From positions 220,011 to 284,010 of the forward strand of contig JACKGE010000001.1 in the NCBI GenBank assembly GCA_020632155.1: 64,000 bases of DNA. Reading direction: 5' to 3'. Positions 2,744-25,875 of this stretch are shown here, in pieces; the stretch's first letter is position 1, and each line of letters opens with the position of its first letter. The notes below the pieces were generated by a model. The model did no database searches, was not told the origin of the DNA, and was given only the letters and a program-made list of their open reading frames with translations. The DNA comes from Candidatus Nomurabacteria bacterium (GTDB lineage Bacteria; Patescibacteriota; Minisyncoccia; Phycocordibacterales; UBA918). Position numbers and translations under genes: made by a program.

Positions 2744-2865
2744 ATAAATTTCCTGAAAATTGCGATTTACTTTGTCACGTTTCTAAAAATAATCCTCGCC
2801 GTATAGCAATACGTCTCCCATTCTTTTTATCACGTTCCTCGTACCTCATCAATTTTCATAAAATC

Positions 2866-4317: not shown

Positions 4318-4343
4318 GCATAGTCCAATCGATTGGACTATGC
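4318..4343. repeat. 26 bp perfect palindrome GCATAGTCCAATCGATTGGACTATGC
   Basis: Seen directly in the sequence. Its 14-mer AGTCCAATCGATTG recurs at about 46180, just upstream of tRNA-Arg-TCT. Confidence 0.6.
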
Positions 4344-4351
4344 GTTTGTTG

Positions 4352-4381
4352 CAAAACAGCCGACTCTTGTCGGCTGTTTTG
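4352..4381. terminator. terminator-like hairpin downstream of pilB (minus strand)
   Basis: CAAAACAGCCGACTCTTGTCGGCTGTTTTG stem-loop with flanking A/T tracts. Confidence 0.6.
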
Positions 4382-4382
4382 T

Positions 4383-6116: not shown

Positions 6117-6200
6117 GACTCTATTGTAGCAAGTTCGGGCTGTACCTCGACGCTATATACGGGAAAACATCAATGAGATATCGCCAAGTCTCTGACTAGT

Positions 6201-6662
6201 GTGGTCGGTGGTACAATGCGCTACATGAATGGGGAATATGACATCACCAACAAAGCCGACCTTGAGTCAGTCGCCGCGCAGCTAGCTACGTACCTACAGT
6301 CACACCAGACTGACGTGGCAAGTGTCGTGGCTCTTCATGGAGAGCTTGGGGCGGGCAAGACAACGTTTGTGCAGGCACTGGCTGCTTCCTTGGGAATAGC
6401 GGAGACGGTGACCAGCCCCACGTTCCTTATCATGCGTTCGTATAAAACTACGGCGGGGCGAAACCTCGTTCATATTGATGCGTACCGAGTGGAGGCCGAG
6501 TCTGAACTCACGGTACTTGGGTTTGAAGAACTCCTGCACCATCCAGAAAACATTATCTGTATTGAGTGGGCGGAGCGAATAGCCGGACTATTACCAAAAC
6601 ACACCCTGCAGCTCACCTTTGCCCTTGCGAGTGACGGCGTGCGAACAGTAACCATTTCGTAG
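6201..6662 (+). CDS. tsaE: tRNA threonylcarbamoyladenosine biosynthesis protein TsaE
   Basis: GELGAGKTTF P-loop in the YjeE-like context. Size about 150 aa. Confidence 0.8.
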   Translation: MVGGTMRYMNGEYDITNKADLESVAAQLATYLQSHQTDVASVVALHGELGAGKTTFVQALAASLGIAETVTSPTFLIMRSYKTTAGRNLVHIDAYRVEAESELTVLGFEELLHHPENIICIEWAERIAGLLPKHTLQLTFALASDGVRTVTIS

Positions 6663-6664
6663 TC

Positions 6665-10386: not shown

Positions 10387-10459
10387 CGCCTGTAGCTCAG
10401 TTGGTAGAGCAGCGGCCTTTTAAGCCGACGGTTCGGAGGTTCGAGCCCTCCCAGGCGGA
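10387..10459 (+). tRNA. tRNA-Lys (anticodon TTT)
   Basis: Cloverleaf folded by hand. Acceptor CCGCCTG/CAGGCGG, D-arm GCTCAGTTGGTAGAGC, anticodon loop CTTTTAA, T-arm GGAGGTTCGAGCCCTCC. No encoded CCA. Confidence 0.8.
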
Positions 10460-10460
10460 C

Positions 10461-11291
10461 ATGAAGTCCTTCAAACAACAATGTATTGAGTTGCGAAAGA
10501 AGGACCATACCCTGAATGAAATAGTACAAATTACTGGTCGAAGTAAAACGACAGTGTACTTTCATATTAGGAACATTCCTCTAAGCAAACAAAAGCGAAA
10601 AAAAATAAGTGAAGCGACCCGATGGCGTGCCCTTCGAGTTGCTGCTGCTCGCAAAGGAAAAGCCTTGCGACCGTTCAAGCCATTTCAAAGCTGGACACCC
10701 GAACTCGTTCTATTAGTTTCCCACCTTATGTTTGACGGGGAAATAACCAAATCAAAGTGTCGTTACCATAATAGAAGTGCGGCCCTGATAAAAAGGGTGG
10801 AGGACTTAATGCAGCTTGTGTACGATTACAAGGGAACAAAAAATACCGATACTACAAGCGGTGTTGTTACCGTAAGTTTCCATAACGTAGAACTTGAAAC
10901 ATTTTTGAAAAGTAAATCAAAAGAACTGCTAAAAAACATTCATGTTTTTTCGAGATCTAAACAGACAGAATTCCTCCGCGCATTTTTTGATGACGAAGGA
11001 TGCATGGACGTACGTTTGAACAAAAGCCTGCGTCGTATTCGTGGTTATCAAAACGACCAAGAGATTCTTAAACTCGTAAAACTGCTCCTAAAAAACTTTG
11101 ATATTGAATCAAAACTCCGTAAACCTAATGAGGTTGTAATTTCTGGTAAGGAAAATCTACGGAAGTTTCAAAAGGAAATAAATTTCTCTAAAGGGGTTAG
11201 ACTAAATCCTAATCGGACGAATAGTATTTGGAAAAAAGATATCGAAAAAAGGGAGCTGTTAGATATTGCTATTAGATCGTACCAGATATAA
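10461..11291 (+). CDS. HTH-containing LAGLIDADG-type homing endonuclease-like protein
   Basis: ATG is immediately 3' of tRNA-Lys (the ORF-track TTG at 10401 would read through the tRNA). N-terminal HTH (LNEIVQITGRSKTTVYFHI). Two LAGLIDADG-like motifs (LVSHLMFDGEI and FLRAFFDDEGCMD). Confidence 0.5.
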   Translation: MKSFKQQCIELRKKDHTLNEIVQITGRSKTTVYFHIRNIPLSKQKRKKISEATRWRALRVAAARKGKALRPFKPFQSWTPELVLLVSHLMFDGEITKSKCRYHNRSAALIKRVEDLMQLVYDYKGTKNTDTTSGVVTVSFHNVELETFLKSKSKELLKNIHVFSRSKQTEFLRAFFDDEGCMDVRLNKSLRRIRGYQNDQEILKLVKLLLKNFDIESKLRKPNEVVISGKENLRKFQKEINFSKGVRLNPNRTNSIWKKDIEKRELLDIAIRSYQI

Positions 11292-12239: not shown

Positions 12240-12518
12240 TTGAAAAATATGGAATACGTTATAGAAGATTCAAAAGAAGGCTACTTTGATGTATACCAGC
12301 ACCAAAACGGCAAGAAGTACATTGTTTTAGAAGGCCTTGATCCAAGGCAAGTACACGAACAGGGGAAAATAGAGCAGTTCACTCGAGCTCATTACAACGA
12401 ATTTGCATCAGCCTACTGGTTATTGCTCTTCATGACGATGATGTACCTCCTTTGTACATACATTATTTCACCTCTTTGGTATCGAGTGCAGAGTCCCCAT
12501 CACGTTTCAGGGCAATGA
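12240..12518 (+). CDS. small hypothetical protein with C-terminal hydrophobic helix
   Basis: ORF only. Overlaps the 3' end of the convergent 12463-14193 gene by about 55 nt. Confidence 0.25.
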   Translation: MKNMEYVIEDSKEGYFDVYQHQNGKKYIVLEGLDPRQVHEQGKIEQFTRAHYNEFASAYWLLLFMTMMYLLCTYIISPLWYRVQSPHHVSGQ

Positions 12519-14193
12519 TCTCATTGGCATAGGTTGGAAGAAAATAGGTATCGGTTGTTTTATTGTACACAACGGTATTGGTGATGCGTTCCACAGCTTG
12601 GAAATATCCTAGGTGAGTGCCGGTGCGTGGTTCAAGTTCGTGCAAACGAGCGGCATTGGTTCCAACGTACAAACGGCCATTGATAACAGTCGGACTCGAA
12701 AAGATACGTGTTCCATCAACGAGTACATCAAATAGTAGAGACAAAGAGTCGAGATTGATAGCTCGAACGCGTTTGTCAGCAGCAGTAAAGTAAACAGTAT
12801 CTTGGTATATGTATGGGGTAGAGAATATGCCGAATTCACATTTATGGTGATGAACTAAATGTCCCGTTTTGCGATCCAAAATGTACAAAAATCCATCTAT
12901 TGCGCCAAATATTATGTAGTCGTGTTTTTGAGAGTATGTGAAACTTTCTTTTATGTCCCCATTACTGTAACCAATATGACCTGTCTCAGGTACGAAGTCA
13001 GCGGCACCGAAAGTAGTAAATTTCCAAAGCACATAACCGGTACGGGCATCATGAAGCCTCACCACTCCATCGTTGGAACCAATGACCACTTGCTTGTGCT
13101 CAGCAATATAGTGGGGAGAGCAATGAGTCATAGCCATGTGAGTACGGTCAATCCATTTAGGCTCGCCACTCGCTACATCAAGAGCAATAATGCCACCACG
13201 TTTATTTATCAACCCAAACTCAAGTCCAATAAAAACTAACCCAAGCTCTTGCGACACAGCAGGGGATGATCCTACCCAGTCAGCTTCAAAGCATATCCAC
13301 TTGACCGCTCCAGTATGTTTATCCAGACAGTACACATTTCCATCGTAGCTGCCAAATATGACCGTATTTTTATATAGTGCTGGGTTAGAGAAAATCGCTT
13401 TCTTTCTTTGTACACTCCCGACTTGATATTTCCAGGCTACCGAACCATCCGCTTGATTAATGGCCCAAAATGTCCGATTGTCCGAACCGAAGTATATCTT
13501 ACTGTCGTCAATCACTGGTTGTGATTTGTTAACTACCCATTCCAAACTTGGTTTTTCACTGCGGAATCCCCATAGGGTACTGAAAGGCATGGCGATAGAT
13601 TCAGGTACTGTTTTGAGGCGCGTTTGGGCTTCGTCGCCAAGACTGTCAGCAAACTCATCGAGCGTAAATAATGACCGCACTTTTATTCCTCTCTGGTAAA
13701 AGCGCTTGTAGTAGGACTCATCTTGGTATCTGAGTATTGCCCAAACGGTATCGACAGTGTACCCATAATACTCTAGTACTTCTATTTGTCGCCAAAAGGT
13801 ATTGCCAGAGTTTATAACATCGTCAACAAGAATGATCTTTTTGTGTTCCTCAAGGGAGCCTTCTATCATTCGGGTCATTCCAGTCTTTTTTCTAGACTTT
13901 CGTATAAAGACAGCGTTACTGTCGGCGTGTCCTTGGGCGTAAAACTTGTTCATTAAAGATGTGGCGAGAGGTACGCCAGCTATCTCCTGTGCACAAATTT
14001 GAAACGGGTACTCAGTGTGAAACTGTTCATAAAATATGCTAGCGATGATATCAGCAGCTTTGCCGTTCATTAAGATCTCTCGAAAATTGAATGTCCATGC
14101 ACTGGGATCAGTTTGCATGGCTAATTGACCGTTCGTGTTTTTGAATATCACGTGATCTTTAATGATATTTCTTAGTGTTTCCAAGTCACTCAT
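12463..14193 (-). CDS. phosphoribosyltransferase domain fused to PQQ-like beta-propeller repeats
   Basis: N-terminal type I PRTase PRPP loop (KIILVDDVINSGNTF). C-terminal repeated YxGSxDGxxYxxDxxTGxxxW blades. Confidence 0.55.
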   Translation of the reverse strand: MSDLETLRNIIKDHVIFKNTNGQLAMQTDPSAWTFNFREILMNGKAADIIASIFYEQFHTEYPFQICAQEIAGVPLATSLMNKFYAQGHADSNAVFIRKSRKKTGMTRMIEGSLEEHKKIILVDDVINSGNTFWRQIEVLEYYGYTVDTVWAILRYQDESYYKRFYQRGIKVRSLFTLDEFADSLGDEAQTRLKTVPESIAMPFSTLWGFRSEKPSLEWVVNKSQPVIDDSKIYFGSDNRTFWAINQADGSVAWKYQVGSVQRKKAIFSNPALYKNTVIFGSYDGNVYCLDKHTGAVKWICFEADWVGSSPAVSQELGLVFIGLEFGLINKRGGIIALDVASGEPKWIDRTHMAMTHCSPHYIAEHKQVVIGSNDGVVRLHDARTGYVLWKFTTFGAADFVPETGHIGYSNGDIKESFTYSQKHDYIIFGAIDGFLYILDRKTGHLVHHHKCEFGIFSTPYIYQDTVYFTAADKRVRAINLDSLSLLFDVLVDGTRIFSSPTVINGRLYVGTNAARLHELEPRTGTHLGYFQAVERITNTVVYNKTTDTYFLPTYANEIIALKRDGDSALDTKEVK

Positions 14194-14325: not shown

Positions 14326-15621
14326 ATGGTTGCTCTTAAAAAGTTATTGTTAGCCACGGGTCTTCTTTTGTTCGTGTTTATTCTTGCTGTAGTAGCTTGG
14401 TATTACTATTACTCGGTTCAAAAGTCACCCCCTACCTCCATTAACAATAAACTGTATTACTCTAAGGTAGCGGAAGACATATTTGTCGCTGTGGAGAGTT
14501 TTAGAAACGATGGTGCTACTGATGAAGAATTCTTGCGTTTCACCGAAGAGCAAGTAAGACAGTTAGATATGGACACACTGTATCCAATAGATCGCGCTTG
14601 GATGGAGCTCTTACTGGCTAGAGCTAAAGAAAAGATAGACCGCGATGCTGCTCTCCTAGGCTATGCAAAAGTTTATAACAAACCCGAATATGAACAGTTG
14701 TGGACTGTTAGGGGCAGTGCTTTAGCCTCAGCCATGTTGTACGCAACTGAAGTTGGCTCACCCCGCTTGAGCTTAGCGGAAGCCAAAGAATTAATCTTTA
14801 AACCGGATTTGTTTGGTCGTGCAGTAGGGATTGACTCAATAGACGAACTGAATCAAATAGAGACTGAGGAGGAACTTAGGTTATTGGTAGGCATTGGATT
14901 AGAAAAAGCAAGCCCTAACATTTTGTCTAAAGCTCGTGAGATGAGACTCGAAGTGGAGAGCCTCTTGCTTCAGTCTGGGACTATTTTAGAAAGATTGTAT
15001 AATAGTAATGATTCTGTCGAATTTACCTCAACTGAGGCCACGTCTCATCTCAACGAACACTTAGAACTTCATGCACAATACGATAGTATCAAGGAGCGAG
15101 CTGACGCACTAAATGCCGCAATACCAATTGTTATTTCCGACCGAAGCATATACTCATCTGAGGTACTTTACACACTAAACTATTTACAGCGTCTCTACAC
15201 CCAGCTGTTGTTTGTCGGATATGATGTGATGCCGTCCATACTTAACATGCATGAGTACTTGTCCGTTTACATCAATTTACATGGTAATGAACATGAGTTT
15301 GCTTTAGAAAGAACAAATATTATTCGAGCCAGCTCGGACTATCGCTTAGTGTGTGCGTTGATACTAGTGAACCAACAAGAAGGTGGAGATACGAACAAAC
15401 TTTCGGCTGAGAATGTTCTATTGAAGAGCCTTTACGATCTTTCGGAAGATGAACTCAGAGCTAACGGCTCGTTGCTTATTGACGCCGCCAAGAGGCCATA
15501 TTATCCTTGTCACCAAGCCTTTTTGACTCTTGGCAGAGAAAACCAAAGATTTGCTGATTTTTTAGTAAAGAATGTCGGAGGTTGGTCGTATGAACAATTT
15601 ACTTCGCCTAAAACCAATTAA
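14326..15621 (+). CDS. TOMM-cluster partner protein A1 (N-terminal TM anchor; paralog of 16068-17384)
   Basis: One N-terminal TM helix. Conserved blocks shared with its paralog: SALASAMLYATEVGSP, ILYTLNYLQRLYTQ, DAAKRPY.PC. The stop lies 10 nt before the precursor peptide. Confidence 0.6.
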   Translation: MVALKKLLLATGLLLFVFILAVVAWYYYYSVQKSPPTSINNKLYYSKVAEDIFVAVESFRNDGATDEEFLRFTEEQVRQLDMDTLYPIDRAWMELLLARAKEKIDRDAALLGYAKVYNKPEYEQLWTVRGSALASAMLYATEVGSPRLSLAEAKELIFKPDLFGRAVGIDSIDELNQIETEEELRLLVGIGLEKASPNILSKAREMRLEVESLLLQSGTILERLYNSNDSVEFTSTEATSHLNEHLELHAQYDSIKERADALNAAIPIVISDRSIYSSEVLYTLNYLQRLYTQLLFVGYDVMPSILNMHEYLSVYINLHGNEHEFALERTNIIRASSDYRLVCALILVNQQEGGDTNKLSAENVLLKSLYDLSEDELRANGSLLIDAAKRPYYPCHQAFLTLGRENQRFADFLVKNVGGWSYEQFTSPKTN

Positions 15622-15631: not shown

Positions 15632-15955
15632 ATGATAAAAAGAAAGACCAAAAAATTTTTATATATACTTAGTGCACTAGTTAGCGTAGTGTTTGGTTAT
15701 ACCATCGGCAAAGATCATGCCGATTATACAAACTTCACGGCCGGCGACGTTTTTTTCAAGGAAGCCCAGGCTGATGTCCCACCACCTCCTTCGTGTGGAG
15801 GGGACACATATAGCTGTGGCGGCGGTGATGATGATGGTGGCTGCGGTGGCTGCGGCTGTGGTTGCGGCGGCGGTGATGATCATGGGGGCTGTGCTTGTAG
15901 TTGTGGTGCACCAGACTGTGGTCAGTGTGGGTCACCAGGCGATGAGCTTTATTAG
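15632..15955 (+). CDS. RiPP precursor peptide 1 (microcin B17-like Gly/Cys-rich core)
   Basis: 107 aa. N-terminal K-rich segment plus hydrophobic leader, then conserved GKDHADYTNFT, then a core rich in G/C/D/S (11 Cys, runs such as CGGCGCGCGGG) ending in GDELY. Confidence 0.6.
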   Translation: MIKRKTKKFLYILSALVSVVFGYTIGKDHADYTNFTAGDVFFKEAQADVPPPPSCGGDTYSCGGGDDDGGCGGCGCGCGGGDDHGGCACSCGAPDCGQCGSPGDELY

Positions 15956-16067
15956 TTCAGTCTCCCTAAACACTCGAAGTGAGATTTACACATGTTGTTC
16001 CGTAGTCCCGATGATTACTATCATTGTTGTGACTAAGTGTACGTGTTAGCATGTCTATGGTCTGATT

Positions 16068-17384
16068 ATGCGCAAGGTTAATAACTTTTTACGTCTCCTC
16101 CTACTCGTCCTTGCTTTATTGATGGTAGTGGTGATTGTGGGTATCGGGTTACTCTTTTTAAAAACACAATCAAACCCTCCGTCAGTTAATAACAAAGAAT
16201 TATATCTCAGTGATACAATCGCCACACTCCTTCAGTCTGCTCAAGAAAAACAAAATGAAGGCGTACCACCTGAAGACATCTTAGCCACTGTCGAGGCTCA
16301 CCTTGCTGAAATTGATGTTCAAGCATTAGCGCCAGTGGATCAGGCTTGGATTGCTCTAGAATGGGCTAGAGTTCACGAACCGATTGATAGAGATATGGCG
16401 CTACTTGAATATGCACGAATATACAATGAACCATCATACGAGTCGTTCATGCCGGTTCGTAATAGTGCTCTGGCTTCAGCCATGTTGTACGCAACCGAAG
16501 TAGGTTCACCGAAGTTATCTTTTATAGATGCCAAACGATTTATCTTCGCACCCGATCTATTTGGCCATGTAGTTGGCATTGATACACAACAAGCCCTCGA
16601 CGCTTTAAAGAGTGATGAAGACCTGCGATTGTTAGCTAGTATCGGGCTGAATCTTTCCAGTGGAGGTATGTTATCGTCCGCCCGTGAGTATCGATTGCAA
16701 GTTGAAAGCTTATTGTTGAAGTCAGAGCATTTGTTGTATCAACTGTACGAAAAAGATACGTCGATTGATTTCATTCCGATTGTTGCACAGCAAAGGTTAG
16801 GCCAAGACTCCTCAATACAAAAACAATTCGAAGAAATCTTTGCTCAAGCAAATAGTATTTTGACGGATCTTCCAGCAAATATCGCACGTCGTAACGCATA
16901 TGTTTCAGACATTCTATATACTCTCAACTATTTACAGCGCCTGTACACGCAGTTTGTTTTTATAGGATATGATGCCCTCCCGCCACTTGATACCTCTAGA
17001 CAGCTACTCAATTCGTACGTAATTACTCATCAGGACGACCATTCCTTTGCTGCACAGCGATCAAATGTCATCTTGGCTAGTTCAAATTATCGCTATGCTT
17101 GTGCATTGGTGATTCGAGACGAATTGGACGGTCAAGAACAATCTGTAGACAGCCGGATCATACGTTCGTTACTCGACGACATACGACAACTTTCAGAAAC
17201 AGACATTGAGGCAGGCAAATCACTTTTAGCTGACGCTGCTAAGAGACCATATTTGCCTTGTTCATACGCCTCAGTGGTAATCGGGACCGTTTATGACCCC
17301 TCCTTTGCTGATTTTCTGGTCGATGAAGTAGGGACATGGAGTCGTGATCAGTTTATGACCCCTAACGATGGTGCTAGTATATAA
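16068..17384 (+). CDS. TOMM-cluster partner protein A2 (paralog of 14326-15621)
   Basis: Same architecture and the same conserved blocks as A1, at about 45-50% identity by eye. Translationally coupled to peptide 2. Confidence 0.6.
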   Translation: MRKVNNFLRLLLLVLALLMVVVIVGIGLLFLKTQSNPPSVNNKELYLSDTIATLLQSAQEKQNEGVPPEDILATVEAHLAEIDVQALAPVDQAWIALEWARVHEPIDRDMALLEYARIYNEPSYESFMPVRNSALASAMLYATEVGSPKLSFIDAKRFIFAPDLFGHVVGIDTQQALDALKSDEDLRLLASIGLNLSSGGMLSSAREYRLQVESLLLKSEHLLYQLYEKDTSIDFIPIVAQQRLGQDSSIQKQFEEIFAQANSILTDLPANIARRNAYVSDILYTLNYLQRLYTQFVFIGYDALPPLDTSRQLLNSYVITHQDDHSFAAQRSNVILASSNYRYACALVIRDELDGQEQSVDSRIIRSLLDDIRQLSETDIEAGKSLLADAAKRPYLPCSYASVVIGTVYDPSFADFLVDEVGTWSRDQFMTPNDGASI

Positions 17385-17391
17385 TTAAAGT

Positions 17392-17670
17392 ATGTTGCAA
17401 AGAAAAACAAAACAAGCCATGTATCTTGTGGGTGCCCTTGTGGGGATCGTGTTTGGATACGTGGTAGGTAAAGATCATGCAAATTACGCCAGCTTTACTC
17501 CAGAAGACCTCTTTTCGAGTGAGGCGAGTGCAGACACACCAAGTTGTGGTGGTGGAGATGCCAGTTGCACACCAGGTGATGACGATAGTTGTGCTGGTGG
17601 CGGTTGTAGTTGTGGTGACGCATGTGGCGGTTGTAGTTGTGGTGGAGGACAGGGTGACGAGCTCTACTAA
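17392..17670 (+). CDS. RiPP precursor peptide 2 (Gly/Cys-rich core)
   Basis: 92 aa. Leader homologous to peptide 1 (GYVVGKDHANYASFT). Core SCGGGDASCTPGDDDSCAGGGCSCGDACGGCSCGGGQGDELY, 8 Cys. Confidence 0.6.
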   Translation: MLQRKTKQAMYLVGALVGIVFGYVVGKDHANYASFTPEDLFSSEASADTPSCGGGDASCTPGDDDSCAGGGCSCGDACGGCSCGGGQGDELY

Positions 17671-17690: not shown

Positions 17691-18917
17691 ATGTTTTTTA
17701 AGGAAGAGTTTAGGTTAAGTTTTATTCTGCAAGTGGCCTTGGCAGCCCTAGTTTTTTGTTATTTCATGGTCTTTGCTGATTGGGTGTCTCGATCAGCCAT
17801 AACACTTGATTCGGTCATTAATCATGCAGCACTGTGCCCAACTTATTTCCAGTCGTGTGAAAGTCTATACTTTTTGCGTGCACTCCCTGATGGATATTCC
17901 CAGAGCATGTGGTACATGCTCTTGTTTGGGAGTCTTATAGTAAGCGCTTACTTTCTCATCTGCCGCCGGTGGAGTGAAGCCCAGTGGATACTTTTGCCCG
18001 CATATGTGTGGCATACGCTAAATGTATTTGTACTTACGTATTACGGTAGTGGAAATTATGAATACTACGTCTTTGTTTTCGGCACGATTCTATTCTTTTT
18101 TCCACATAAAGAATTCTTTTTAAAGCTGACCCTAGTTCTGTTCTACGTCATGTCTACTGCCGCTAAAATCCATCCAGCATGGATAGCAGGAGGATACTTC
18201 ACGAACATGAGCTTAGGCCTCCCTGTCTTTCCTGAGTGGTCAATACCACTATTTACTAATCTTGTTATTGTGATGGAAATGGTCGGGGCATGGTTTTTGC
18301 TTTCAAAACATCCCCTCGTGCAGCGCACGGTCCTTTTATTTTTTGTAATCTTTCACCTCTATTCCGGTGTGTTGGTTGAATACCGCTATCCTGCTACGGT
18401 GTTGCCCATGCTTCTTATTGCCTTTGGTCCATGGTACCGTTATCAAAAGCCGCCATTAGATAAGAAGTCTGTCATTGGTTGGACGTTCATCGGCTTACTG
18501 TGTATTTTGCAACTTACTCCAAAAATGGTTGTGGGTGACGAAAAACTCACTCTTGAGGCGAACAAGTACGGCCTCTATATGTTCGAGTCCAATCATCAGT
18601 GCATCGTATCGGCTGAGTATATCTACACCGACGGACACGTAGACACATATATGGAAGTACATAACAATCCTCGCTTCCGCTGTGACCCATACATGTTTTG
18701 GTATCGATTCAACCATGTGTGTGAACAGGACCCCCGTCTTTCTCGCATCGCTTGGACCTTTGACCACTCCATTAATGGCGACCCCTTCTTACGTATTGTT
18801 GACACTGATAACGCCTGCGACCTAGAATACAAACCTTTCTCCCATAATGAATGGATCAAGACGTATACTGACAACCCTGAAGTGATCGGTTGGCCGGCAC
18901 AAAATGATTATCACTAG
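17691..18917 (+). CDS. HTTM-domain (vitamin K-dependent gamma-carboxylase-like) multi-pass membrane protein
   Basis: About 9 TM helices in the first 280 aa plus a soluble C-terminal domain. The segment LRALPDGYSQSMWYMLLFGSL resembles the VKGC/HTTM block [24 protein letters not shown]. Confidence 0.45.
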   Translation: MFFKEEFRLSFILQVALAALVFCYFMVFADWVSRSAITLDSVINHAALCPTYFQSCESLYFLRALPDGYSQSMWYMLLFGSLIVSAYFLICRRWSEAQWILLPAYVWHTLNVFVLTYYGSGNYEYYVFVFGTILFFFPHKEFFLKLTLVLFYVMSTAAKIHPAWIAGGYFTNMSLGLPVFPEWSIPLFTNLVIVMEMVGAWFLLSKHPLVQRTVLLFFVIFHLYSGVLVEYRYPATVLPMLLIAFGPWYRYQKPPLDKKSVIGWTFIGLLCILQLTPKMVVGDEKLTLEANKYGLYMFESNHQCIVSAEYIYTDGHVDTYMEVHNNPRFRCDPYMFWYRFNHVCEQDPRLSRIAWTFDHSINGDPFLRIVDTDNACDLEYKPFSHNEWIKTYTDNPEVIGWPAQNDYH

Positions 18918-20061
18918 AAGCAAAAGACATACGATGCTATGCGCCTTTGTGTGTGGACTTTTTTTTGCGCTTAGTGGTAGTTATCTATACACACTCATTG
19001 CTAATAGAGCCGTTACACCCGAAGTGCGTCCGGTTGTGTATGATAGAGAGCAACTGGCTAACGGAACGATCTACACAACCCTTGGTAATCAACAGGAGTT
19101 CAATCAAAAGTATGCTCACCAGCGGCCATATTTATTGGAGCTGGCCGCAGATGGCACTTTGGTTTGGTCTGAGTCGACCGAGAGTACTCCATTTCATTAT
19201 CAACGACTACCTAATGGTACCAAGGTATACGCCCTACATGATATTGACAGCAAGCGGTGGTCTGCACACTGGCATGTAATAGAACCTGATGGCTCAAAAC
19301 ACATTGTTCAAAGCCAAGAAATTGACCATACTGACTTTCATTTTTTATTACCGACTCCAACTGGAGAGTTTTGGGTACCAGGGTATAGATTGCAAGAATT
19401 AGAAGGACAAAAGGTAGAGTCTTTATGGCTTGAGTTGCAGAATCAGGCAGGTGAGGTGATGCAGTCATGGGATAGTTTGTCACATGTGAGTTTAGATTCA
19501 ACGCAGGCCACAGAAACACGAAAATATTGGCTGGAGCACGATATCAATGATTATTTTCACGGTAACAGCGCCACTTACGCACTCGATGGTGCACTTCTCA
19601 TCTCGGCTCGCAATACCAACCAAATATACAAGGTAGACCCCCAAACCGGTGAGGTAGTTTGGAGGTTGGGAGGGAAGGACAGCGATTTCAATATAATAGA
19701 TGATCCTCTCGGTGGTTTTTCTCATCAACATACCGTTAGCCAGTTAGGAAACGGGAATATACTTCTTTTTGACAACGGCAATCTACACCAACCGCAACAG
19801 TCTCGCGTTGTAGAGTACCAGCTTGATGAAGAGGCGATGACCGCTACGTATGTTTGGTCGTATACCGAAGCTGGTCGGTTTTCGTACGCGGCTGGCTCAG
19901 CTCAGCGGCTACCAAACGGCAATACGTTCATTAGTTGGGGGCTCGAGGTTGATGAGTCAAGTGGTAAAGCCAAAATAACGGAGGTCTCTCCGTTGGGAGA
20001 GAGGGTGCTGGAGATTTTTTTTGCTCCTGAGGTATTTTTCTACGACGCCTTCAAGCTATAG
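18904..20061 (+). CDS. arylsulfotransferase (ASST)-like beta-propeller protein
   Basis: N-terminal signal/anchor. ASST-family blocks FHGNSATYALDGALLISARNTNQIYKVD..GEVVW and HQHT....GNGNILLFDNGN. Confidence 0.55.
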   Translation: MIITRSKRHTMLCAFVCGLFFALSGSYLYTLIANRAVTPEVRPVVYDREQLANGTIYTTLGNQQEFNQKYAHQRPYLLELAADGTLVWSESTESTPFHYQRLPNGTKVYALHDIDSKRWSAHWHVIEPDGSKHIVQSQEIDHTDFHFLLPTPTGEFWVPGYRLQELEGQKVESLWLELQNQAGEVMQSWDSLSHVSLDSTQATETRKYWLEHDINDYFHGNSATYALDGALLISARNTNQIYKVDPQTGEVVWRLGGKDSDFNIIDDPLGGFSHQHTVSQLGNGNILLFDNGNLHQPQQSRVVEYQLDEEAMTATYVWSYTEAGRFSYAAGSAQRLPNGNTFISWGLEVDESSGKAKITEVSPLGERVLEIFFAPEVFFYDAFKL

Positions 20062-20092
20062 AAAAACCGCCGACTACTGCCGACGGTTTTTG
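20060..20092. terminator. bidirectional terminator-like hairpin
   Basis: AAAAACCG...CGGTTTTT stem between convergent genes. Confidence 0.5.
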
Positions 20093-20116
20093 ATTGGACG
20101 GAGGCGAAGACCCGAC

Positions 20117-20440
20117 CTACTTGAAGACTTGGACTTGGTCGTCCTTCTCTCCATTTTTGTCTCGGGTCGAGAAGGTCACCTTATACTTCCCGCCGCCGAT
20201 ATCCTTGATGTTGATGGCGGCGCGGCCACCGGGCCAGCGTATCCGCCAACGGCCGTCCTTGACGCGGTCGGCCGTGTAGCACCGCCCCTTGTGGCAGTAG
20301 ATCGCTTTCTGGGCAGACACGACTCGCACCGAGGCGGCGCTGCCGTCGTTCCAGCGGCCGGAAGCTTTCTCACCGGCGGTTGCGGGAGCGGCTGCCAAGG
20401 CGGCAGCGATGGCAGCGACAACAAAGAACGCACGTTTCAT
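20117..20440 (-). CDS. GC-rich small secreted protein (hypothetical)
   Basis: MKRAFFVVAAIAAALAAAPATAGE signal peptide. About 63% GC. Sits between the ASST-like gene and sagB-like. Confidence 0.55.
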   Translation of the reverse strand: MKRAFFVVAAIAAALAAAPATAGEKASGRWNDGSAASVRVVSAQKAIYCHKGRCYTADRVKDGRWRIRWPGGRAAINIKDIGGGKYKVTFSTRDKNGEKDDQVQVFK

Positions 20441-20507
20441 GGGACTCTCCTTTCCCTATGTTGTGATGGTCAATTTATAACACAAATATATAATTTTTGC
20501 AACACGC

Positions 20508-21212
20508 TTAGTTTGAAAGAGTGAAAGTGTAGATTGGCTGTTCATCAAAAGGATCGAGCTCCAATACGTCGGTAATCTTTTCATCACGAAAGCCACCAAT
20601 AGGGCAGAAATGTAGGTTGGCCGTCTCAGCCGCTAAAGACAGATTTTGTCCAATATGACCTGCTTCTAGTAAGCAGAGATCATAAGCAAAATCAGAATAT
20701 TTTGGCGTATTTCGACTCCAGCGTGCGGTGAGAATTATGACTGCGAGTGCCTCGGTTTCGATGTCGGCTTTAAAGAGATCGTTAGTCGTTAGCTTTAGTG
20801 GCAACTCCCATAGTCTTTCCAAGACGTGCTCTTTGACTTGGTAATGGTACAGTGTTGGCCGAGCATCCGTCTCAAGCCGCGTACAAAGGTAGCATTCAAC
20901 GGGGTAAAAGGAACCGCCTGATGGGTATGGTCGGTGGTGATCCTTATGTTCTCGTAAGGCGAGACCAAACAGTGTTCCCAGTTGTTGGGGAGTTGGGTAG
21001 ATAGATGTGTCCGACCGGCGTCTTGACCGCCTCTTTTGTAGTAGTTCAACAAATGTATCAGTTGAAACGGGGTCTGGTAGTGGAATTTTTAGAAAACGGG
21101 GGTAGGTCTTACTCTGCTGTATTGCTGGCCAGAGTGATTCTGACGTGGCTGTTTTGCCTTTGTTAGTTCGGCGAATATATTGATGGATTCTAAGTGGCGT
21201 AAGGTTAAGCAT
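20508..21212 (-). CDS. SagB-type (TOMM) FMN-dependent dehydrogenase
   Basis: RRSRRR, YPSGGSFYPVECY and LLEAGHIGQNL..C.IGGF blocks typical of the SagB/ThcOx nitroreductase-fold family. The start is 9 nt after the ycaO stop. Confidence 0.8.
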   Translation of the reverse strand: MLNLTPLRIHQYIRRTNKGKTATSESLWPAIQQSKTYPRFLKIPLPDPVSTDTFVELLQKRRSRRRSDTSIYPTPQQLGTLFGLALREHKDHHRPYPSGGSFYPVECYLCTRLETDARPTLYHYQVKEHVLERLWELPLKLTTNDLFKADIETEALAVIILTARWSRNTPKYSDFAYDLCLLEAGHIGQNLSLAAETANLHFCPIGGFRDEKITDVLELDPFDEQPIYTFTLSN

Positions 21213-21220: not shown

Positions 21221-22669
21221 TTAAGCAAAAGGATGTGGGTAGGCTGTAAAGGGTGTAGGTAAAGATTGGTAACCAAATTTTTCTGGTACAGCGGATAGAC
21301 GTTTTCCCGTTACGTATGGTACACGTTCGTTTTGATGCATGGGTTGTAAATCAGGCATGACCACCATTTCAATATTCCAAGGAGACACGTTTCTTTTTGT
21401 TGAACCAACTGAGACTGAACATAGTTCGTAATTATTGTTCCTAGCCCAATTAACTATTCTTCGTAAATGATCACTCTCGGAGTCAGCCTCCCAGTTCTCG
21501 CTTGGGTTTGGTTCACTGGAGTCTGTTCCAGAAAGGAAGTACATATTACTAACTTGTTGAGGCTCAGCCCAGTAGTCCAATCGTTCAAGGTGGTTCAACT
21601 TCGACCCGTCTCTTTTTACAGATTGCTTGCCAGTACGAGACTGCCGATTCCTAATGGTTTGGCGTATGCGCAACGCTTCGAGCAGGGCTCCCTCAACGGC
21701 CGTACTCAAGCTATTATGCGCTTTAAGTCCTACCGTAAAAGCAGGAACATGTTCATGAGTGTCTTTGAGACTGGCACAAATTGCGTACGTTGGCGCATCT
21801 GTTACCATTCGAATTGCTGAAGGTTCAAGCTGGTATTTCTTGCACAACTCGAGTAGGCGTTGCAATTTTGGTGAAGTGTGAGCCAGATCAAGAAGGTTAA
21901 GTCTTGGTAACTTGAGTTGGTTGAGCCAAAGTATCATATAGGCATCACGTTCAATCACTTCTAGTGCTCCAGCAAGAACAGCTCCCTCACGTGTTGGCCA
22001 TGTTGCAAGACCGGTCGTAATCGGCATAAGGAGTATCGGCTCACGAGCGAGTTTTTTGTCACGGCAGCTATTGACCAGCTGGGCGGGCAAGTACAGCTGC
22101 TTCCCAGTGGTCCATGACTGACCCAAGGTCCAAGTGAATTTACTATCTGGAGCAAAAGAAAGCCGTCCATATTTTTCTCGTTGCTCTTTTGAGACGCCAG
22201 TTATTTGGTCCGGTGAGATGAACGAAATGGATTTTTTTTGCATCTCGTTTATGCTTGCGTACATTGGTTTTTTAAAATAGGAAGTGTCTTCAAACCATAA
22301 ATATCTTTCCACTGCTTCAGCCAAGGCAGCGATAAAGGCATCATAATCGCTGTCTATGGACATACCGCCGGCCCGTTGATTATCATGTGTGCCGCATGTC
22401 ACTGCCCAGTGGTATTGCAAGGGCTCATCATGGTAGCCAGTGATGGGACGATAGTTTTTTATTAGTTTGGCCTCAATCAGTTGTTGTGCTATGGAGAATA
22501 AAGGAATGAGATCTGTTCTTCCATAGGGTATATAGTTAGCATCGACTGTAACAGACGCATTAAAGTATTTTTCAATAAATGTTATCAAGGCTAACTTCGC
22601 ATCATCCGAAAATCCTTGCCTTCGTTTCCTAATAATCTCCGTTAACAGTAACGTATCGTGCATGACCAA
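21221..22669 (-). CDS. YcaO-domain cyclodehydratase (TOMM D protein)
   Basis: AEAVERY, ITTGLATW and ALEVIERDA motifs (ATP/Mg binding, ExxERD). C-terminus YPHPFA, like the PxPxP tail of azoline-forming YcaOs. Confidence 0.85.
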   Translation of the reverse strand: MVMHDTLLLTEIIRKRRQGFSDDAKLALITFIEKYFNASVTVDANYIPYGRTDLIPLFSIAQQLIEAKLIKNYRPITGYHDEPLQYHWAVTCGTHDNQRAGGMSIDSDYDAFIAALAEAVERYLWFEDTSYFKKPMYASINEMQKKSISFISPDQITGVSKEQREKYGRLSFAPDSKFTWTLGQSWTTGKQLYLPAQLVNSCRDKKLAREPILLMPITTGLATWPTREGAVLAGALEVIERDAYMILWLNQLKLPRLNLLDLAHTSPKLQRLLELCKKYQLEPSAIRMVTDAPTYAICASLKDTHEHVPAFTVGLKAHNSLSTAVEGALLEALRIRQTIRNRQSRTGKQSVKRDGSKLNHLERLDYWAEPQQVSNMYFLSGTDSSEPNPSENWEADSESDHLRRIVNWARNNNYELCSVSVGSTKRNVSPWNIEMVVMPDLQPMHQNERVPYVTGKRLSAVPEKFGYQSLPTPFTAYPHPFA

Positions 22670-22689: not shown

Positions 22690-23154
22690 TTGGGCCTACA
22701 AGATTCGGTGACAATTGGTAGTGACATGGCTACGCATGCTGGTTACAATGGTCTCTGTAGCATGAACAGACTTCCACCTTGTACGGTTTTATATCAAGGC
22801 AATTGTACCTTTTGTCGTTGGTGTATGAGACTGGTACTCAAAAACAGTCGAGAAGGGATGTTTACATTCATCCCGATTGAAAGTGAGGAGGGGAAGGCTC
22901 TCATTAAAGAGGGGTCTCTATCGATAAACCCTGAACATCCAGACAGTATTGCAGTATTAGTGTCTGACGAGAAGGTTTACTATAAATGGCAAGGTGGAGT
23001 AGAAATTGCTCGTCACACAACGTTTCCGTTTCGGTTGGTGTATTTTGTTGCGATGATGGTGCCGAGTTTTTTGGGAGATCGTATATATGACTGTATTGGT
23101 CGTCATCGGGCTCTGCTGTGTCGGTTGGTCCGATGTCGCCAAAGGCAGTCATAG
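22690..23154 (+). CDS. DCC-family (DUF393) thiol-disulfide oxidoreductase
   Basis: LYQGNCTFCRWC CxxC motif near the N-terminus and the downstream family pattern. The real start is probably the M of MNRLPPC at about 22762. Divergent from ycaO. Confidence 0.6.
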   Translation: MGLQDSVTIGSDMATHAGYNGLCSMNRLPPCTVLYQGNCTFCRWCMRLVLKNSREGMFTFIPIESEEGKALIKEGSLSINPEHPDSIAVLVSDEKVYYKWQGGVEIARHTTFPFRLVYFVAMMVPSFLGDRIYDCIGRHRALLCRLVRCRQRQS

Positions 23155-23207
23155 GAAAGGCCGCGAATCTTACTCGCGGCCTTATTGCAGGTTTCTACTG
23201 CTCCACC

Positions 23208-23573
23208 TTAGCGAAGATCTGGGTTTGGGTCAGTGCAGACGTCGATGAGGTATTTTCCGCTCAACCACTCGCCATCTAGGTGACCACTCACCTCCACCAC
23301 GTAACGGCAGGGCGTTTCGGGGAAGTCCAACGACAGCGTGTCGTTGTACCGGACTTCCGTACCGTTAAAGTCAACGCCCTGCCAAAGGTCATCGGCAGCA
23401 ACCTCGGGACGCAGCCGGACCTCTGTCCAGTTGACGGGCGTGTGGTTGGTGAAGACCACCCTAGTCATCTGTCCGTCATTGGTAGAGACGGTCGGTGTCG
23501 CCGCCAGCGCTGAGGCGGTTGCCAGCAAGCTGGCGATTATAGCGTGAAAGAACGATCTCATGATCTCCTCCAA
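23208..23573 (-). CDS. GC-rich small secreted protein (hypothetical)
   Basis: Signal peptide MRSFFHAIIASLLATASALAATP. About 62% GC. TTG or ATG start ambiguity. Confidence 0.5.
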   Translation of the reverse strand: MEEIMRSFFHAIIASLLATASALAATPTVSTNDGQMTRVVFTNHTPVNWTEVRLRPEVAADDLWQGVDFNGTEVRYNDTLSLDFPETPCRYVVEVSGHLDGEWLSGKYLIDVCTDPNPDLR

Positions 23574-23667
23574 AGACGATTAAGCGTACCGTTTACCGAC
23601 TTATATAATAGCACATTTTAATATTTTTGTCAAAACAAAACTTTGAAATAGTATAAAAAGAAAACCG

Positions 23668-23699
23668 GGCTGCTGGGAAGCAACCCGGTTTTGTCCGCA
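23668..23699 (-). terminator. rho-independent terminator after 23713-24060 gene
   Basis: AAAACCGGGCTGCTGGGAAGCAACCCGGTTTT hairpin with a T tract on the minus strand. Confidence 0.55.
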
Positions 23700-23712
23700 T
23701 GTCGCCGGCGGA

Positions 23713-24060
23713 TCAGAAGTTCATGAAGTGCAGGTGCGAAGCGACGACGTAGCGGCCGTCGAGTTCGACGAGGCCGAAACTGGCTCCACCCTCGCGGTGA
23801 GCCGTGCGGGCCGCCTGTTCGAGCAGTCCGATGTCGCTGTCGGGGTAGACCTGCATATGGCAGGCGCCGGCGGCGATGAGCGGCTCGAGGACCGACAGGA
23901 AGGCCGAATCGTCGGCCTCGGCCTGCAGGGACGGCGTATTCAGAGCCGACCCCATCAGAGCGCCGGCGTCGGTGACGTTGTCACAGGACACAATCTCGGC
24001 GGCCGCGGCGGGGAAGGCGCACGCGGTGACGATAAGAACGGATGCAAGAATCTTCTTCAT
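23713..24060 (-). CDS. GC-rich small lipoprotein / secreted protein (hypothetical)
   Basis: MKKILASVLIVTAC lipobox-like signal. About 66% GC. Confidence 0.5.
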   Translation of the reverse strand: MKKILASVLIVTACAFPAAAAEIVSCDNVTDAGALMGSALNTPSLQAEADDSAFLSVLEPLIAAGACHMQVYPDSDIGLLEQAARTAHREGGASFGLVELDGRYVVASHLHFMNF

Positions 24061-24192
24061 GGGGACCCCATTTGGTTGGTTTGATTCTGGCGATATTGCC
24101 GTTAGCTATACTACTACAAATAGGTAAAATGTCAACCTCAAAAAGGGCAGTTATACAATAACGTGATATTGGCTAGGCACAGAAAGGGTATA

Positions 24193-25875
24193 ATGAGGCC
24201 AATGAAAACGTATTTGGTATCCGTGCGCGACTTCATCTGGCGCCATCCGTTGTTGATAGCTCTTGGTGGGTTGGCGTTTGTCGCTCTCTATGTATGGAGC
24301 GAGAGTTTTGGTGTCGCAACTGGTTCGTGGCTGCCGGCAGTATTTGGCCTTGGCGGCCAAAGCGGTTCCCAGTCGGGTAGTTCTAGTTCATCAACTGGTG
24401 GCTATTCGACTTACTCAGGTAGTCGTGGAACCTATGGCGGCCGCATGACCCAAACTGAGTTTGGTGACTATGCTGAGAGAGACGGAGCCGATGTGTATCA
24501 TTATGATGGTTACTCAAAAGCGTATTATTCTGATGGCTCGACATCATCTTGGAGCAGTTCCAGCTCCTCCAGTCCATACTTATTGGTTTGGAACGGTAAG
24601 CGTTATCTGCATGAAAATGATTTCTTGTTTGGTAAGCCCACCACTGTATTTACTGATTATGCAGAAGGGTATACGGCGTACCGACGAGGTATTGGCGGTG
24701 ACTCGTATTTGGTACGCCTTCCAGTCGTGGAAGAAGACGGGAAACTTCGCTTCCAAATTCGAGAGATAGAACCAGAAGAGTCATTTATAGACCGATTTTG
24801 CTTACAGGCTATTGATTTACATCCTGACCAGATACCGATTGTCGACGGTTCGCTTGGCTGTGTACATGTATTTGACGCCAAGACAGCCAGCCTCGTAGCT
24901 GATCAAACCGTGCAACACTACCACCGTAATACAAACACCGTATCAGTTCAGACCTTTGCTGATAGTAAGGTACTGCGTGTACACGACCGCGGGGGTTCCA
25001 TGTTAGAGACTGGAGATGAAATCATCATTCAGATACCTCGAAAAGATCTGACCGAGGAAGCTTTGTATGTAGTGGTGGATTCCTACTTTAGAGATTGGAC
25101 ACTAGGTGAAACTGTACCCTTTTCATATCAAGATCGTCTCCTCATCTATTCTCGTGGTACGGCTCGTAAGTTGGCTACAACTGCCGCAGGGGTGAGTTTA
25201 CTCCTTGCCGGTATGGCAGTGACACAGACCGTGTCCGGTCACGCACTCCAGAATATCCTTGCTACTCCCTACGCCAATGCAGATGTTCCACCACCACCAC
25301 CGACGAGTGGTGGTGGAGGAGGAACAAGTTGTGGGGGTATGACAACGGCCTGTTCGTCAAAATCTCTAGAGGTGAGTGTGATGATTGGTGGCCGGCGTAT
25401 TTTGCTACAGACACTCTTTCCTCGACTGGTACAGGCTTCAAAAGAAGTGGTGTGTATACCAAAGGATCTTGTACAGAGTGTTGCAGACGAAGTCATTACA
25501 ATTTGCATTAAAGCTACCAAGCGCCACCAGGTCACGTTTGCCGGTGTTATGCAGGGGCAGGCAGTTTTAGCCGAACCGACCTTGTTAGGTAGACAGACAG
25601 TGGTACATACGCGGACAGGACAAGATGTGTCAGAGAAAATACGCCAAAAGAATGAAGACTTCCTCCATATTGTGCCAGGTGATACCTACGAGGTTACCGT
25701 GTCTGATATGCCTACTGTAGCGACTGGCCTACAGCGCCACATTCTTCTCAGTACCAATGGTTTTTATACGCGACTATCAGAAGCAACAAAGAGGCGCATC
25801 GGCGCTAATTGGTATCGTACATTAGCTCCTGAAGACAAAGCCATTTTGCGCAGCCTTAAACAAATAGGTGTTTAG
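24193..25875 (+). CDS. membrane-anchored hypothetical protein with Ser/Gly-rich linker
   Basis: ATG after an AAGGG RBS (the ORF-track GTG is at 24163). TM helix, a low-complexity GSQSGSSSSS stretch, and a PPPPPTSGGGGG linker. Confidence 0.45.
   Translation: MRPMKTYLVSVRDFIWRHPLLIALGGLAFVALYVWSESFGVATGSWLPAVFGLGGQSGSQSGSSSSSTGGYSTYSGSRGTYGGRMTQTEFGDYAERDGADVYHYDGYSKAYYSDGSTSSWSSSSSSSPYLLVWNGKRYLHENDFLFGKPTTVFTDYAEGYTAYRRGIGGDSYLVRLPVVEEDGKLRFQIREIEPEESFIDRFCLQAIDLHPDQIPIVDGSLGCVHVFDAKTASLVADQTVQHYHRNTNTVSVQTFADSKVLRVHDRGGSMLETGDEIIIQIPRKDLTEEALYVVVDSYFRDWTLGETVPFSYQDRLLIYSRGTARKLATTAAGVSLLLAGMAVTQTVSGHALQNILATPYANADVPPPPPTSGGGGGTSCGGMTTACSSKSLEVSVMIGGRRILLQTLFPRLVQASKEVVCIPKDLVQSVADEVITICIKATKRHQVTFAGVMQGQAVLAEPTLLGRQTVVHTRTGQDVSEKIRQKNEDFLHIVPGDTYEVTVSDMPTVATGLQRHILLSTNGFYTRLSEATKRRIGANWYRTLAPEDKAILRSLKQIGV

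Follow-up and report, generated by a model that had tools for sequence, protein, structure and literature searches.

A family of predicted signal-anchored acidic peptides in Patescibacteria whose Cys-rich members lie beside YcaO and SagB genes

Introduction

In microcin B17 (McbA + McbBCD) and the other linear azole peptides or thiazole/oxazole-modified microcins (LAP/TOMM), a Gly/Cys/Ser-rich core is modified by a YcaO enzyme together with a SagB/McbC-type flavin mononucleotide (FMN) dehydrogenase. A second kind of peptide maturation involves polytopic membrane proteins. In animals, the vitamin-K gamma-carboxylase GGCX and VKOR are partners, and we know of no established function for the bacterial homologues of this carboxylase (HTTM). 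SdpB, from the sdpABC system of Bacillus subtilis, is a member of the HTTM family. Both SdpA and SdpB are needed to process SdpC to SDP (PMC6818787). Bufferin precursors possess a Sec signal peptide, and the Sec/signal-peptidase route exports and cleaves them; the conversion of their Cys to heterocycles persists when export is prevented, and the product binds metal (PMC11626156). Here we analyse a 64,000-nucleotide stretch of a Candidatus Nomurabacteria genome (contig JACKGE010000001.1 of GCA_020632155.1, positions 220,011 to 284,010; hereafter the window, in whose numbering coordinates are given with their strand), which encodes two paralogous Cys-rich peptides in the neighbourhood of YcaO and SagB genes.

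Results

Two peptides of an undescribed family

Peptide 1 (15632-15955, +; 107 aa with 11 Cys, 23 Gly and 12 Asp) and peptide 2 (17392-17670, +; 92 aa with 8 Cys) are 55% identical across their first 76 residues, and the lengths, Cys counts and paralogy given in a preliminary description of this DNA were all recovered. Both start with a K/R-rich N-terminus (net +3 to +5), continue into residues 9-25, which are hydrophobic (17-residue Kyte-Doolittle mean 2.06 in peptide 1 and 2.21 in peptide 2), contain the box GKDHA(D/N)Y..FT and end in GDELY, again as first described. The leader of peptide 1 spans residues 1-47 (K-rich segment, hydrophobic helix, GKDHADY..FT and a closing ...AQA) and is followed by DVPPPP; its 60-residue core holds all 11 Cys and has a net charge of -10. 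Peptide 2 shows the same leader architecture, with a junction at which ...ASA meets DTP, and a core of 45 aa with 8 Cys and a net charge of -8. These low-complexity cores of 45-60 residues have short tandem repeats and contain 7-9 Asp and not one basic residue. The single Glu to which the preliminary description drew attention holds for each core, but not for the whole peptides, which contain 2 (peptide 1) and 3 (peptide 2).

Over the 49 alignable leader codons, the paralogues differ 18, 8 and 33 times at codon positions 1, 2 and 3, respectively. In the peptide frame the proportion of nonsynonymous differences (pN) is 0.26 and that of synonymous differences (pS) 0.92, whereas in the other two frames pN is about equal to pS. 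Because pN falls far below pS in the peptide frame only, we regard peptides 1 and 2, on this codon pattern, as real coding genes under purifying selection and not chance frames. Neither matched a Pfam or NCBIfam family (only noise, E > 0.005). A promoter and terminator scan, with RNA folding of the spacer between peptide 1 and the gene that follows it (A2, see below), gave nothing exceeding shuffled controls and no sign of an attenuator behind the precursor gene.

When 5.8 billion proteins were searched by word index with the peptide profile, a truncated peptide 2 was the sole match, and an exhaustive HMMER scan of 1.84 billion representatives yielded four distant homologues. Further loci (designated L and a number) were fetched using two neighbouring gene products as anchors, a phosphoribosyltransferase (PRTase)-propeller fusion and a 408-aa membrane protein, and their six-frame translations were scanned by regular expression and with a hidden Markov model of the leader (E 8.9e-22 for peptide 1 and about 1e-21 for both window peptides). 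The family thus comprises 14 members, the two window peptides and 12 others, from about a dozen distinct loci on metagenomic contigs, and every relative with a named source belongs to the Candidate Phyla Radiation (CPR, Patescibacteria). All members carry a net charge of +1 to +5 (+3 to +5 in 12 of the 14) ahead of a 15-17-residue hydrophobic helix, then a spacer of roughly 18-24 residues, a near-invariant A-x-A-D-(V/I/T/E)-P and a tail of 23-77 residues. Gly, Asp and Ser make up the tail, with Cys and Tyr present or absent; it lacks Lys and Arg and has a net charge of -3 to -13. It is hypervariable across the family, of low complexity and strongly anionic, and in the closest subgroup its C-terminus is a Tyr, Ser or Thr with acidic flanks (GDELY, GDEYS, SDEYT, GDEST, PGESY). 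A literature search found no description of the peptides, of their partner A proteins, of the 408-aa family or of the whole system. By their sequences, then, peptides 1 and 2 are members of an undescribed family of small, signal-anchored acidic peptides that are predicted to be exported.

One member, in L014 (7718-8473, -), has the usual leader, AQADIP and an acidic Gly/Asp tail, and then extends into some 165 aa starting G, CFVAGTQV.... The extension resembles a Hint/intein-type autoprocessing domain, for which Pfam gives a faint Vint match (E 0.26). If this domain is real, the tail C-terminus would be released as a thioester, a hint that C-terminal chemistry matters.

Cysteine content of the tails and the presence of YcaO

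The window encodes a SagD-like YcaO (21221-22669, -), a 482-aa ATP-dependent enzyme (Pfam PF02624, 7.3e-40); among PDB sequences, MusD, an archaeal YcaO and LynD come nearest to it. It also encodes a 234-aa SagB-type FMN dehydrogenase of the azoline oxidase type (20508-21212, -), which scores 113.8 bits against TIGR03605, over the cut-off of 78.4, and has the azoline oxidases CyaGox, BmdC and McbC as PDB relatives. With peptides 1 and 2 lying 2.8-5.3 kb from SagB and YcaO, the YcaO neighbourhood proposed in the preliminary description is borne out by both Pfam and NCBIfam. Three further loci have YcaO orthologues (52% identical in L032, 28% in L007 and 22-23% in L024) with ATP-site motifs in common. 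SagB accompanies YcaO in the window, L032 (43% identical) and L024 (31%), and the L007 contig stops inside the YcaO gene. An invariant HPFA closes all four YcaOs and points to one dedicated clade, and the gene order of the module in which they sit differs among the four loci.

Where YcaO is present, the tails contain 11 and 8 Cys (peptides 1 and 2), 12 (L032), 3 (L007) and 5 (L024). In loci with no YcaO in the contig, the count is 2 in L015, L016, L019/20 and L021 and zero in L026 and L034. Tails with 3-12 Cys therefore occur at 4/4 YcaO loci vs 0/6 others, an outcome expected about once in 210 by exact count if the loci are independent, or about once in 84 if the window and L032 are taken as one lineage. 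Cys-rich cores with GC, SC and CSC repeats are likewise restricted to YcaO loci. Near the YcaO genes we saw no other Cys-, Ser- or Thr-rich small open reading frame (ORF), the only conserved small ORF being that of a predicted signal-peptide protein. The association of YcaO with high Cys counts is the main evidence, drawn from gene content, that YcaO and SagB would act on the tails. Homologous peptides also sit with YcaO and the GGCX-like gene in other genomes, a co-location on which the preliminary description had made its proposal depend.

Layout of the cluster and the conserved module

The co-directional genes run in the order A1, peptide 1, A2, peptide 2, 408-aa membrane protein and ASST-like protein. 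Upstream lies a divergent gene for a PRTase-PQQ-beta-propeller fusion; downstream, on the opposite strand, are YcaO, SagB and a small protein bearing a predicted signal peptide, followed by a DCC1-like gene. The preliminary account of the cluster did not mention the A-x-A-D-x-P boundary, the alpha-helical partners encoded in pairs with the peptides, or the PRTase-propeller gene. A1 (14326-15621, +) encodes 431 aa with an N-terminal membrane anchor, an all-alpha TPR-like solenoid and a C-terminal F..FL...GGW..QF, and is separated from peptide 1 by 10 nucleotides (nt); its paralogue A2 (16068-17384, +; 438 aa, 44% identical) stands 7 nt ahead of peptide 2. Since each peptide gene follows a paralogous A gene, the duplicated unit is a two-gene pair.

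An AlphaFold2 model of A1 is all helical (pLDDT 68.8), with only weak, non-significant TPR-like matches in Foldseek (E > 0.02). A1 and A2 match nothing in Pfam or NCBIfam, and their profile, run against the 5.8 billion proteins by word-indexed search, brought up nothing beyond A1 itself and a truncated A2 of the same organism. A1 homologues adjoin the peptides of L007, L026 and L032 at 21-30% identity, and a helical, membrane-anchored protein of 350-440 aa adjoins the peptide in every locus with enough sequence. These A-type partners diverge fast, being linked to each other by 21-30% identity or by weak hhalign links to 350-aa partners, and have in common a C-terminal F..FL...GW. We infer that the A protein is a specific binder or chaperone of its peptide.

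The PRTase-propeller (12463-14193, -) is a 576-aa protein in which an orotate-PRTase-like domain is fused to a PQQ-type beta-propeller, and it has no hydrophobic N-terminus (Pfam PQQ_2 6.8e-28, Beta-prop_ACSF4 4.2e-38, Pribosyltran 7e-6; TIGR00336 pyrE 3.5e-20). Proteins 56-71% identical to it are encoded in L006, L007, L013-16, L026, L031 and L032, in most of which the gene adjoins the peptide gene; it could be a peptide-binding propeller with chemistry dependent on phosphoribosyl pyrophosphate. Homologues occur in about 20 loci and are conserved far better than the other module genes. When GTDB species genomes were scanned with the profile of the PRTase-propeller, the one locus obtained was L012, without a peptide gene on its contig, which is binned as Azotimanducaceae. 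Neighbouring genes there (2694-6972) would, to judge by their sequences, encode a sulfatase-like protein and a fused sulfate adenylyltransferase/adenosine phosphosulfate (APS) kinase, for synthesis of phosphoadenosine phosphosulfate (PAPS), and are a faint hint of sulfur or sulfation chemistry; its DCC1-like protein was confirmed by BLAST.

Two smaller genes recur. Fam3 (12240-12518, +), a 92-aa protein with a hydrophobic stretch near its C-terminus and no Pfam match, is found at 34-53% identity in L007, L014, L015, L026, L027, L031 and L032 (tblastn, with families clustered by all-vs-all BLASTP) and accompanies the GGCX-like or PRTase-propeller gene in most related loci. The DCC1-like (DUF393) thiol-disulfide oxidoreductase (22690-23154, +; CxxC, Pfam PF04134 4e-15), whose true start is probably an internal ATG, has homologues in L012, L015, L026, L032 and L033, and a DCC1-like gene is also present in L029. 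Neighbourhoods are kept across loci although the shared proteins are just 20-70% identical. L026, on an 848-kb contig, is syntenic with the window in its Mur ligase, RuvA, LNT-like and TPR genes, and is without YcaO, SagB and ASST. As judged from these comparisons, the constant module consists of the peptide-A pair, the cytoplasmic PRTase-propeller, the GGCX-fold membrane protein, the small membrane protein and the DCC1-like oxidoreductase, and the peptide family is older than its YcaO association.

The remainder of the window is housekeeping (TyrRS, RuvA, RuvB, PolA, Mur ligase and pilus genes), with an RND pump 13 kb from the cluster. Domain searches of the window revealed no dedicated RiPP (ribosomally synthesised and post-translationally modified peptide) exporter or leader protease near the cluster. 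The small protein downstream of SagB (20117-20440, -; 107 aa, predicted signal peptide, local GC 59%) is weakly similar (E 1e-5) to the ORF at the same position after SagB in L032. It was set aside as an alternative YcaO substrate or partner, being neither Cys-, Ser- nor Thr-rich. A 167-aa plus-strand ORF at 20021-20524 was also dropped, as gene callers in L004, L005 and L032 choose the minus-strand 107-aa ORF. Two GC-rich patches, 20000-20400 and 23200-24000 (57-59% vs about 43-45% in neighbouring DNA), encode signal-peptide-like small proteins at 20117-20440, 23208-23573 and 23713-24060, all on the minus strand. Just upstream of the cluster, a free-standing LAGLIDADG-domain ORF (10401-11291, +; Pfam 8.5e-13) adjoins a SpoU methylase gene.

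A membrane protein with a GGCX-like fold and an ASST-like neighbour

Directly downstream of peptide 2 lies the gene for a polytopic protein of 408 aa with a C-terminal beta domain (17691-18917, +). It has no Pfam match at E <= 10, HTTM included, and none in NCBIfam, including the SdpB-type models, and a profile search of PDB sequences with its family gave no match. None of its 479 homologues has a Pfam domain; the best 120 of the 479 are 49-63% identical, and those named by source are from CPR bacteria. Its AlphaFold2 model is confident (pLDDT 84.9, pTM 0.86), and the top 14 Foldseek matches of the model are all human GGCX (E 1.8e-8 to 5e-7, TM 0.60-0.64). The protein thus has, by its model, a GGCX-like fold, and the earlier HTTM/VKGC-like label holds at the level of fold but is detected by no sequence profile. 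Six Cys are invariant in the family, as are several Lys and His, including K140, K159 and H222. Invariant Cys pairs, located in loops and within the C-terminal beta domain, suggest that this face of the protein is extracytoplasmic, which would place it on the same side as the peptide tail if the K-rich N-terminus of the peptide stays inside.

The GGCX-like gene directly follows the peptide gene in the window, L007-9 and L026, and is present without a detectable peptide gene in L027-31. In L026 (10001-12494), tandem GGCX-like paralogues of 408 and 411 aa come after the peptide gene. In L027-L030 (3544-5744), with no peptide or PRTase-propeller neighbour detected, the gene follows two paralogous Cys-rich proteins of about 350-380 aa and is also preceded by fam3 and by a 175-aa protein with a signal-like N-terminus and a hydrophobic C-terminal segment. 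The GGCX-like enzyme may have further clients beyond the peptides. In a Kaiserbacteria genome (L034/L035), a VKOR-like gene (4148-4597, -; faint Pfam match) is located some 5.4 kb away from the GGCX-like gene.

The next gene begins within the last 14 nt of the GGCX-like gene and encodes a 385-aa beta-propeller with an N-terminal membrane anchor (18904-20061, +). Matches to PF05935 (2.7e-26) and PF14269 (3.4e-26) and to the PDB entry 9kf4, 'Sulfotransferase' (5e-28, the best), agree with the ASST-like identity first assigned to it. By tblastn the gene was found in no other locus compared, the closest one (L032) included, and is particular to this organism.

Gene calling and assembly variants

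Public gene callers annotated a wrong-frame ORF of 110 aa (15717-16049, +; MPIIQTSRPATFF...) over peptide 1; because they choose this frame, the true 107-aa peptide is missing from a 15-billion-protein collection. In NCBI, peptide 2 is hypothetical protein H6783_01345 of a 'Candidatus Nomurabacteria' metagenome-assembled genome. A protein identical to its 408-aa neighbour carries a Candidatus Kaiserbacteria label elsewhere; both names refer to CPR (Patescibacteria). In two other assemblies of the same organism (L004 and L005), peptide 2 is shorter, in frame, by 27 nt or 9 aa (GDACGGCSC). The difference falls at 17597-17642, flanked by a 21-nt direct repeat, and the rest of the gene is identical; slippage or (short-read) assembly collapse could be responsible. 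Peptide families of this type are probably under-annotated systematically in CPR genomes.

Discussion

We lean, by a modest degree, towards the reading that a conserved, exported acidic peptide has been recruited as the substrate of thiazole formation, with modification in the cytoplasm, export by a signal anchor and processing outside. After translation and still in the cytoplasm, YcaO and SagB would turn some or many Cys that sit in GC, SC and CGC contexts into thiazol(in)es. The peptide would then insert through the general secretion machinery by its signal anchor, N-terminus in and tail out, and the lack of a dedicated exporter or protease near the cluster fits such a route. On the outer face the tail would be bound or further modified by the A protein, the GGCX-like protein and the DCC1-like protein, and here only by the ASST-like protein; cleavage after A-x-A may release it. 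What results would be a thiazole- and thiol-rich anionic peptide, surface-tethered or secreted, for which the most plausible role would be binding metal cations. The YcaO/SagB pair would have joined a pre-existing module in the window lineage and at three other loci, where the tails became Cys-rich. On this account the LAP precursor identity first proposed for the peptides may stand for the YcaO lineages, as a lineage-specific add-on, and fails as the identity of the wider family, because members without YcaO, which is not a constant partner, have 0-2 Cys.

Several observations weigh against this recruitment. Members exist without YcaO and even without Cys (L026 and L034), so the primary function of the family would be independent of azole formation. 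The YcaO scores 180.5 bits against its best NCBIfam model, the SagD-type TIGR03604, under the cut-off of 219.25, and in the window YcaO and SagB lie on the strand opposite to the peptide operon. No E1-like, Ocin-ThiF-like or RiPP recognition element (RRE) partner was detected with Pfam and NCBIfam in the window, L007, L024 or L032, with remote homology still possible, and the N-terminal 105 aa of the YcaO have no Pfam match even at E <= 1 and no detected fused E1-like or RRE domain. The A-x-A lies about 20 residues past the hydrophobic helix, too distant for a classical type I signal-peptidase site, and classical cleavage right behind the helix was rejected for the same reason. The YcaO/Cys association comes from few loci, some on short contigs, which are not phylogenetically independent. 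Lastly, the combination of transmembrane helix, spacer, (N)AD(V/L)P and low-complexity sequence may be a general envelope stalk or sorting motif and not a leader/core junction.

This last point belongs to a rival that is possible, though we hold it tentatively: that the peptides are not RiPP precursors at all but membrane-anchored envelope proteins, whose disordered acidic tail forms a surface stalk or cation-binding brush. Roles such as envelope charge, attachment to a host cell or mineral, or Ca2+ binding can be imagined, with the GGCX-like, DCC1-like and alpha-solenoid proteins servicing the tail and YcaO/SagB acting on another substrate or being chance neighbours. A related module does serve as a linker inside a 570-aa protein of the window (24163-25875, +), in which R/K residues, a hydrophobic segment and about 20 aa lead to ANADVPPPPP and on to Gly-rich sequence that contains 2 Cys; among the six-frame ORFs of the window, A.AD[VITE]P is found just three times. 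The tails of YcaO-less members, with their 0-2 Cys, are rich in Tyr, Ser, Gln, Gly and Asp (L026, L034), the constant partners are membrane or extracytoplasmic proteins, and the YcaO has no detected RRE/E1 partner, all of which suit an envelope role. Such a role does not account for one dedicated YcaO clade inside the module at four loci with differing gene orders, nor for the confinement of Cys-rich cores with GC, SC and CSC repeats to YcaO loci, and the surroundings of the YcaO genes offered no alternative small ORF rich in Cys, Ser or Thr.

As to the 570-aa protein itself, ANADVPPPPP is followed by TSGGGGGTSCGG and then by a C-terminal domain of about 170 aa. Its syntenic orthologue in the YcaO-less L026 (14839-16596) has at the same place NADLP, NADLPRYSQTGYWGGGGG... 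and a YSQ/Gly-rich stretch with no Cys.

It is unlikely, in our estimate, that the tails are metallothionein-like, binding Cu, Zn, Cd or Fe through free thiolates and carboxylates with no heterocyclisation while DCC1-like, rhodanese and DsbA-like neighbours manage thiol redox. The composition of the cores, with 8-11 Cys and 7-9 Asp and no basic residue, would suit such a role, and thiol genes do recur in related loci: besides the DCC1-like gene, other loci carry rhodanese, a DsbA-like thioredoxin and DsbB, as well as an AMMECR1-domain protein. Yet the peptides match no Pfam or NCBIfam family at all, an exported poly-Cys peptide would be prone to oxidation, and the restriction of high Cys content to loci with YcaO/SagB is left unexplained. 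There is some overlap here with the favoured pathway, which also involves metal binding.

Similarly improbable is a reading in which the tails are substrates of the GGCX-like protein, by carboxylation of Glu/Asp (a chemistry for which GGCX-type enzymes need quinone and O2), and of the ASST-like enzyme, by O-sulfation of the acid-flanked C-terminal Tyr, the two modifications first proposed. It draws on the GGCX-like fold, on the position of that gene directly after the peptide gene in the window, L007-9 and L026, on C-termini with acid-flanked Tyr (DELY, DEYS, DEYT, ESY) and on the overlap of the ASST-like gene, with its match to a solved sulfotransferase, with the GGCX-like gene; and the succession of anchor, spacer, cleavage-like site and acidic tail recalls the signal-propeptide-Gla domain layout of vitamin-K-dependent proteins. 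Set against these are the absence of an HTTM match at the sequence level, tails that are Asp-rich with a Glu count of only 0-5, a GGCX-like gene that also occurs without a detectable peptide gene (L027-31), and an ASST-like gene in no other locus, not even in L032.

A related proposal, to which we give little credence, starts from the conserved core of the module (peptide, alpha-solenoid, GGCX-fold enzyme and DCC1-like protein) as a prokaryotic counterpart of the GGCX system, in which the membrane enzyme would modify Asp/Glu of the tail outside, by carboxylation or otherwise, to give a cation-binding product, with YcaO/SagB adding thiazoles in some lineages. The YcaO-independent core module may also be something new altogether. 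That the ORFs are untranslated chance frames in Gly-codon-rich (GGY/TGY) DNA is very improbable and effectively refuted, for although gene callers took another frame over peptide 1 and the cores are of low complexity with short tandem repeats, pN falls far below pS in the peptide frame only, distant loci hold homologues with the same architecture and synteny, and the strain-level length variant is in frame.

Should the recruitment be true, these would be YcaO/SagB peptides with a membrane-anchor or secretion-signal leader and without the usual E1/RRE recognition partner, and they would widen a rule shown so far for MNIO-made bufferins, in which general secretion replaces dedicated RiPP exporters. 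One scaffold with 0-2 Cys in the absence of YcaO and 3-12 in its presence is an apparent natural experiment, and looks like an exported peptide recruited into a RiPP pathway. With a genetically linked candidate substrate for a GGCX homologue, the function of bacterial HTTM proteins becomes testable. Were the peptides part of a GGCX counterpart, they would give a bacterial GGCX/HTTM homologue its first natural substrate and make up a RiPP class whose maturation takes place on the two sides of the membrane.

Comparison with known systems

The locus can be compared with the sdpABC/yitPOM toxin operons of Bacillus subtilis. In both cases a Sec-exported precursor (predicted here) stands beside a polytopic membrane protein, which in Bacillus is required for extracytoplasmic processing; however, the 408-aa protein lacks an SdpB-type NCBIfam match, no SdpA homologue is present, and the Bacillus products are hydrophobic toxins, unlike acidic Gly-rich tails. 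In comparison with GGCX, the 408-aa protein is 12-16% identical, has no Pfam HTTM match and is much shorter (408 vs about 760 aa), and the tails are Asp/Gly-rich where Gla proteins are Glu-rich.

The likeness to LAP/TOMM systems is that of a Gly/Cys/Ser-rich core encoded with a YcaO enzyme and a SagB/McbC-type dehydrogenase. The resemblance to microcin B17 that was first remarked on holds for composition, while BLASTP of peptide 1 gave no alignment to McbA at E <= 100 (with a manually entered McbA sequence). Here, moreover, no E1-like/RRE 'C' protein was detected, a K-rich signal anchor, bounded by A-x-A-D-x-P, takes the place of a soluble leader, the core is strongly acidic, there is no dedicated ABC exporter or protease, and the precursor family pre-exists without YcaO. 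With bufferins (copper-binding RiPPs, BufA + BufBC, modified by oxidative enzymes that depend on multinuclear non-haem iron, MNIO), the locus has in common a Cys-containing precursor with an N-terminal Sec-type signal and a proposed route of modification followed by Sec export. Only this export logic is common to the two, as domain searches found no MNIO (DUF692) or DUF2063 domain in the cluster: the enzymes here are YcaO/SagB and not MNIO/DUF2063, the tail is disordered and poly-acidic and not a small folded protein, about 20 residues separate the hydrophobic helix from the putative cleavage motif, and the peptides are those of CPR bacteria. Judged by analogy, the system would come closest in its workings to a linear azole peptide pathway that has been joined to a peptide exported by Sec, as in bufferins.

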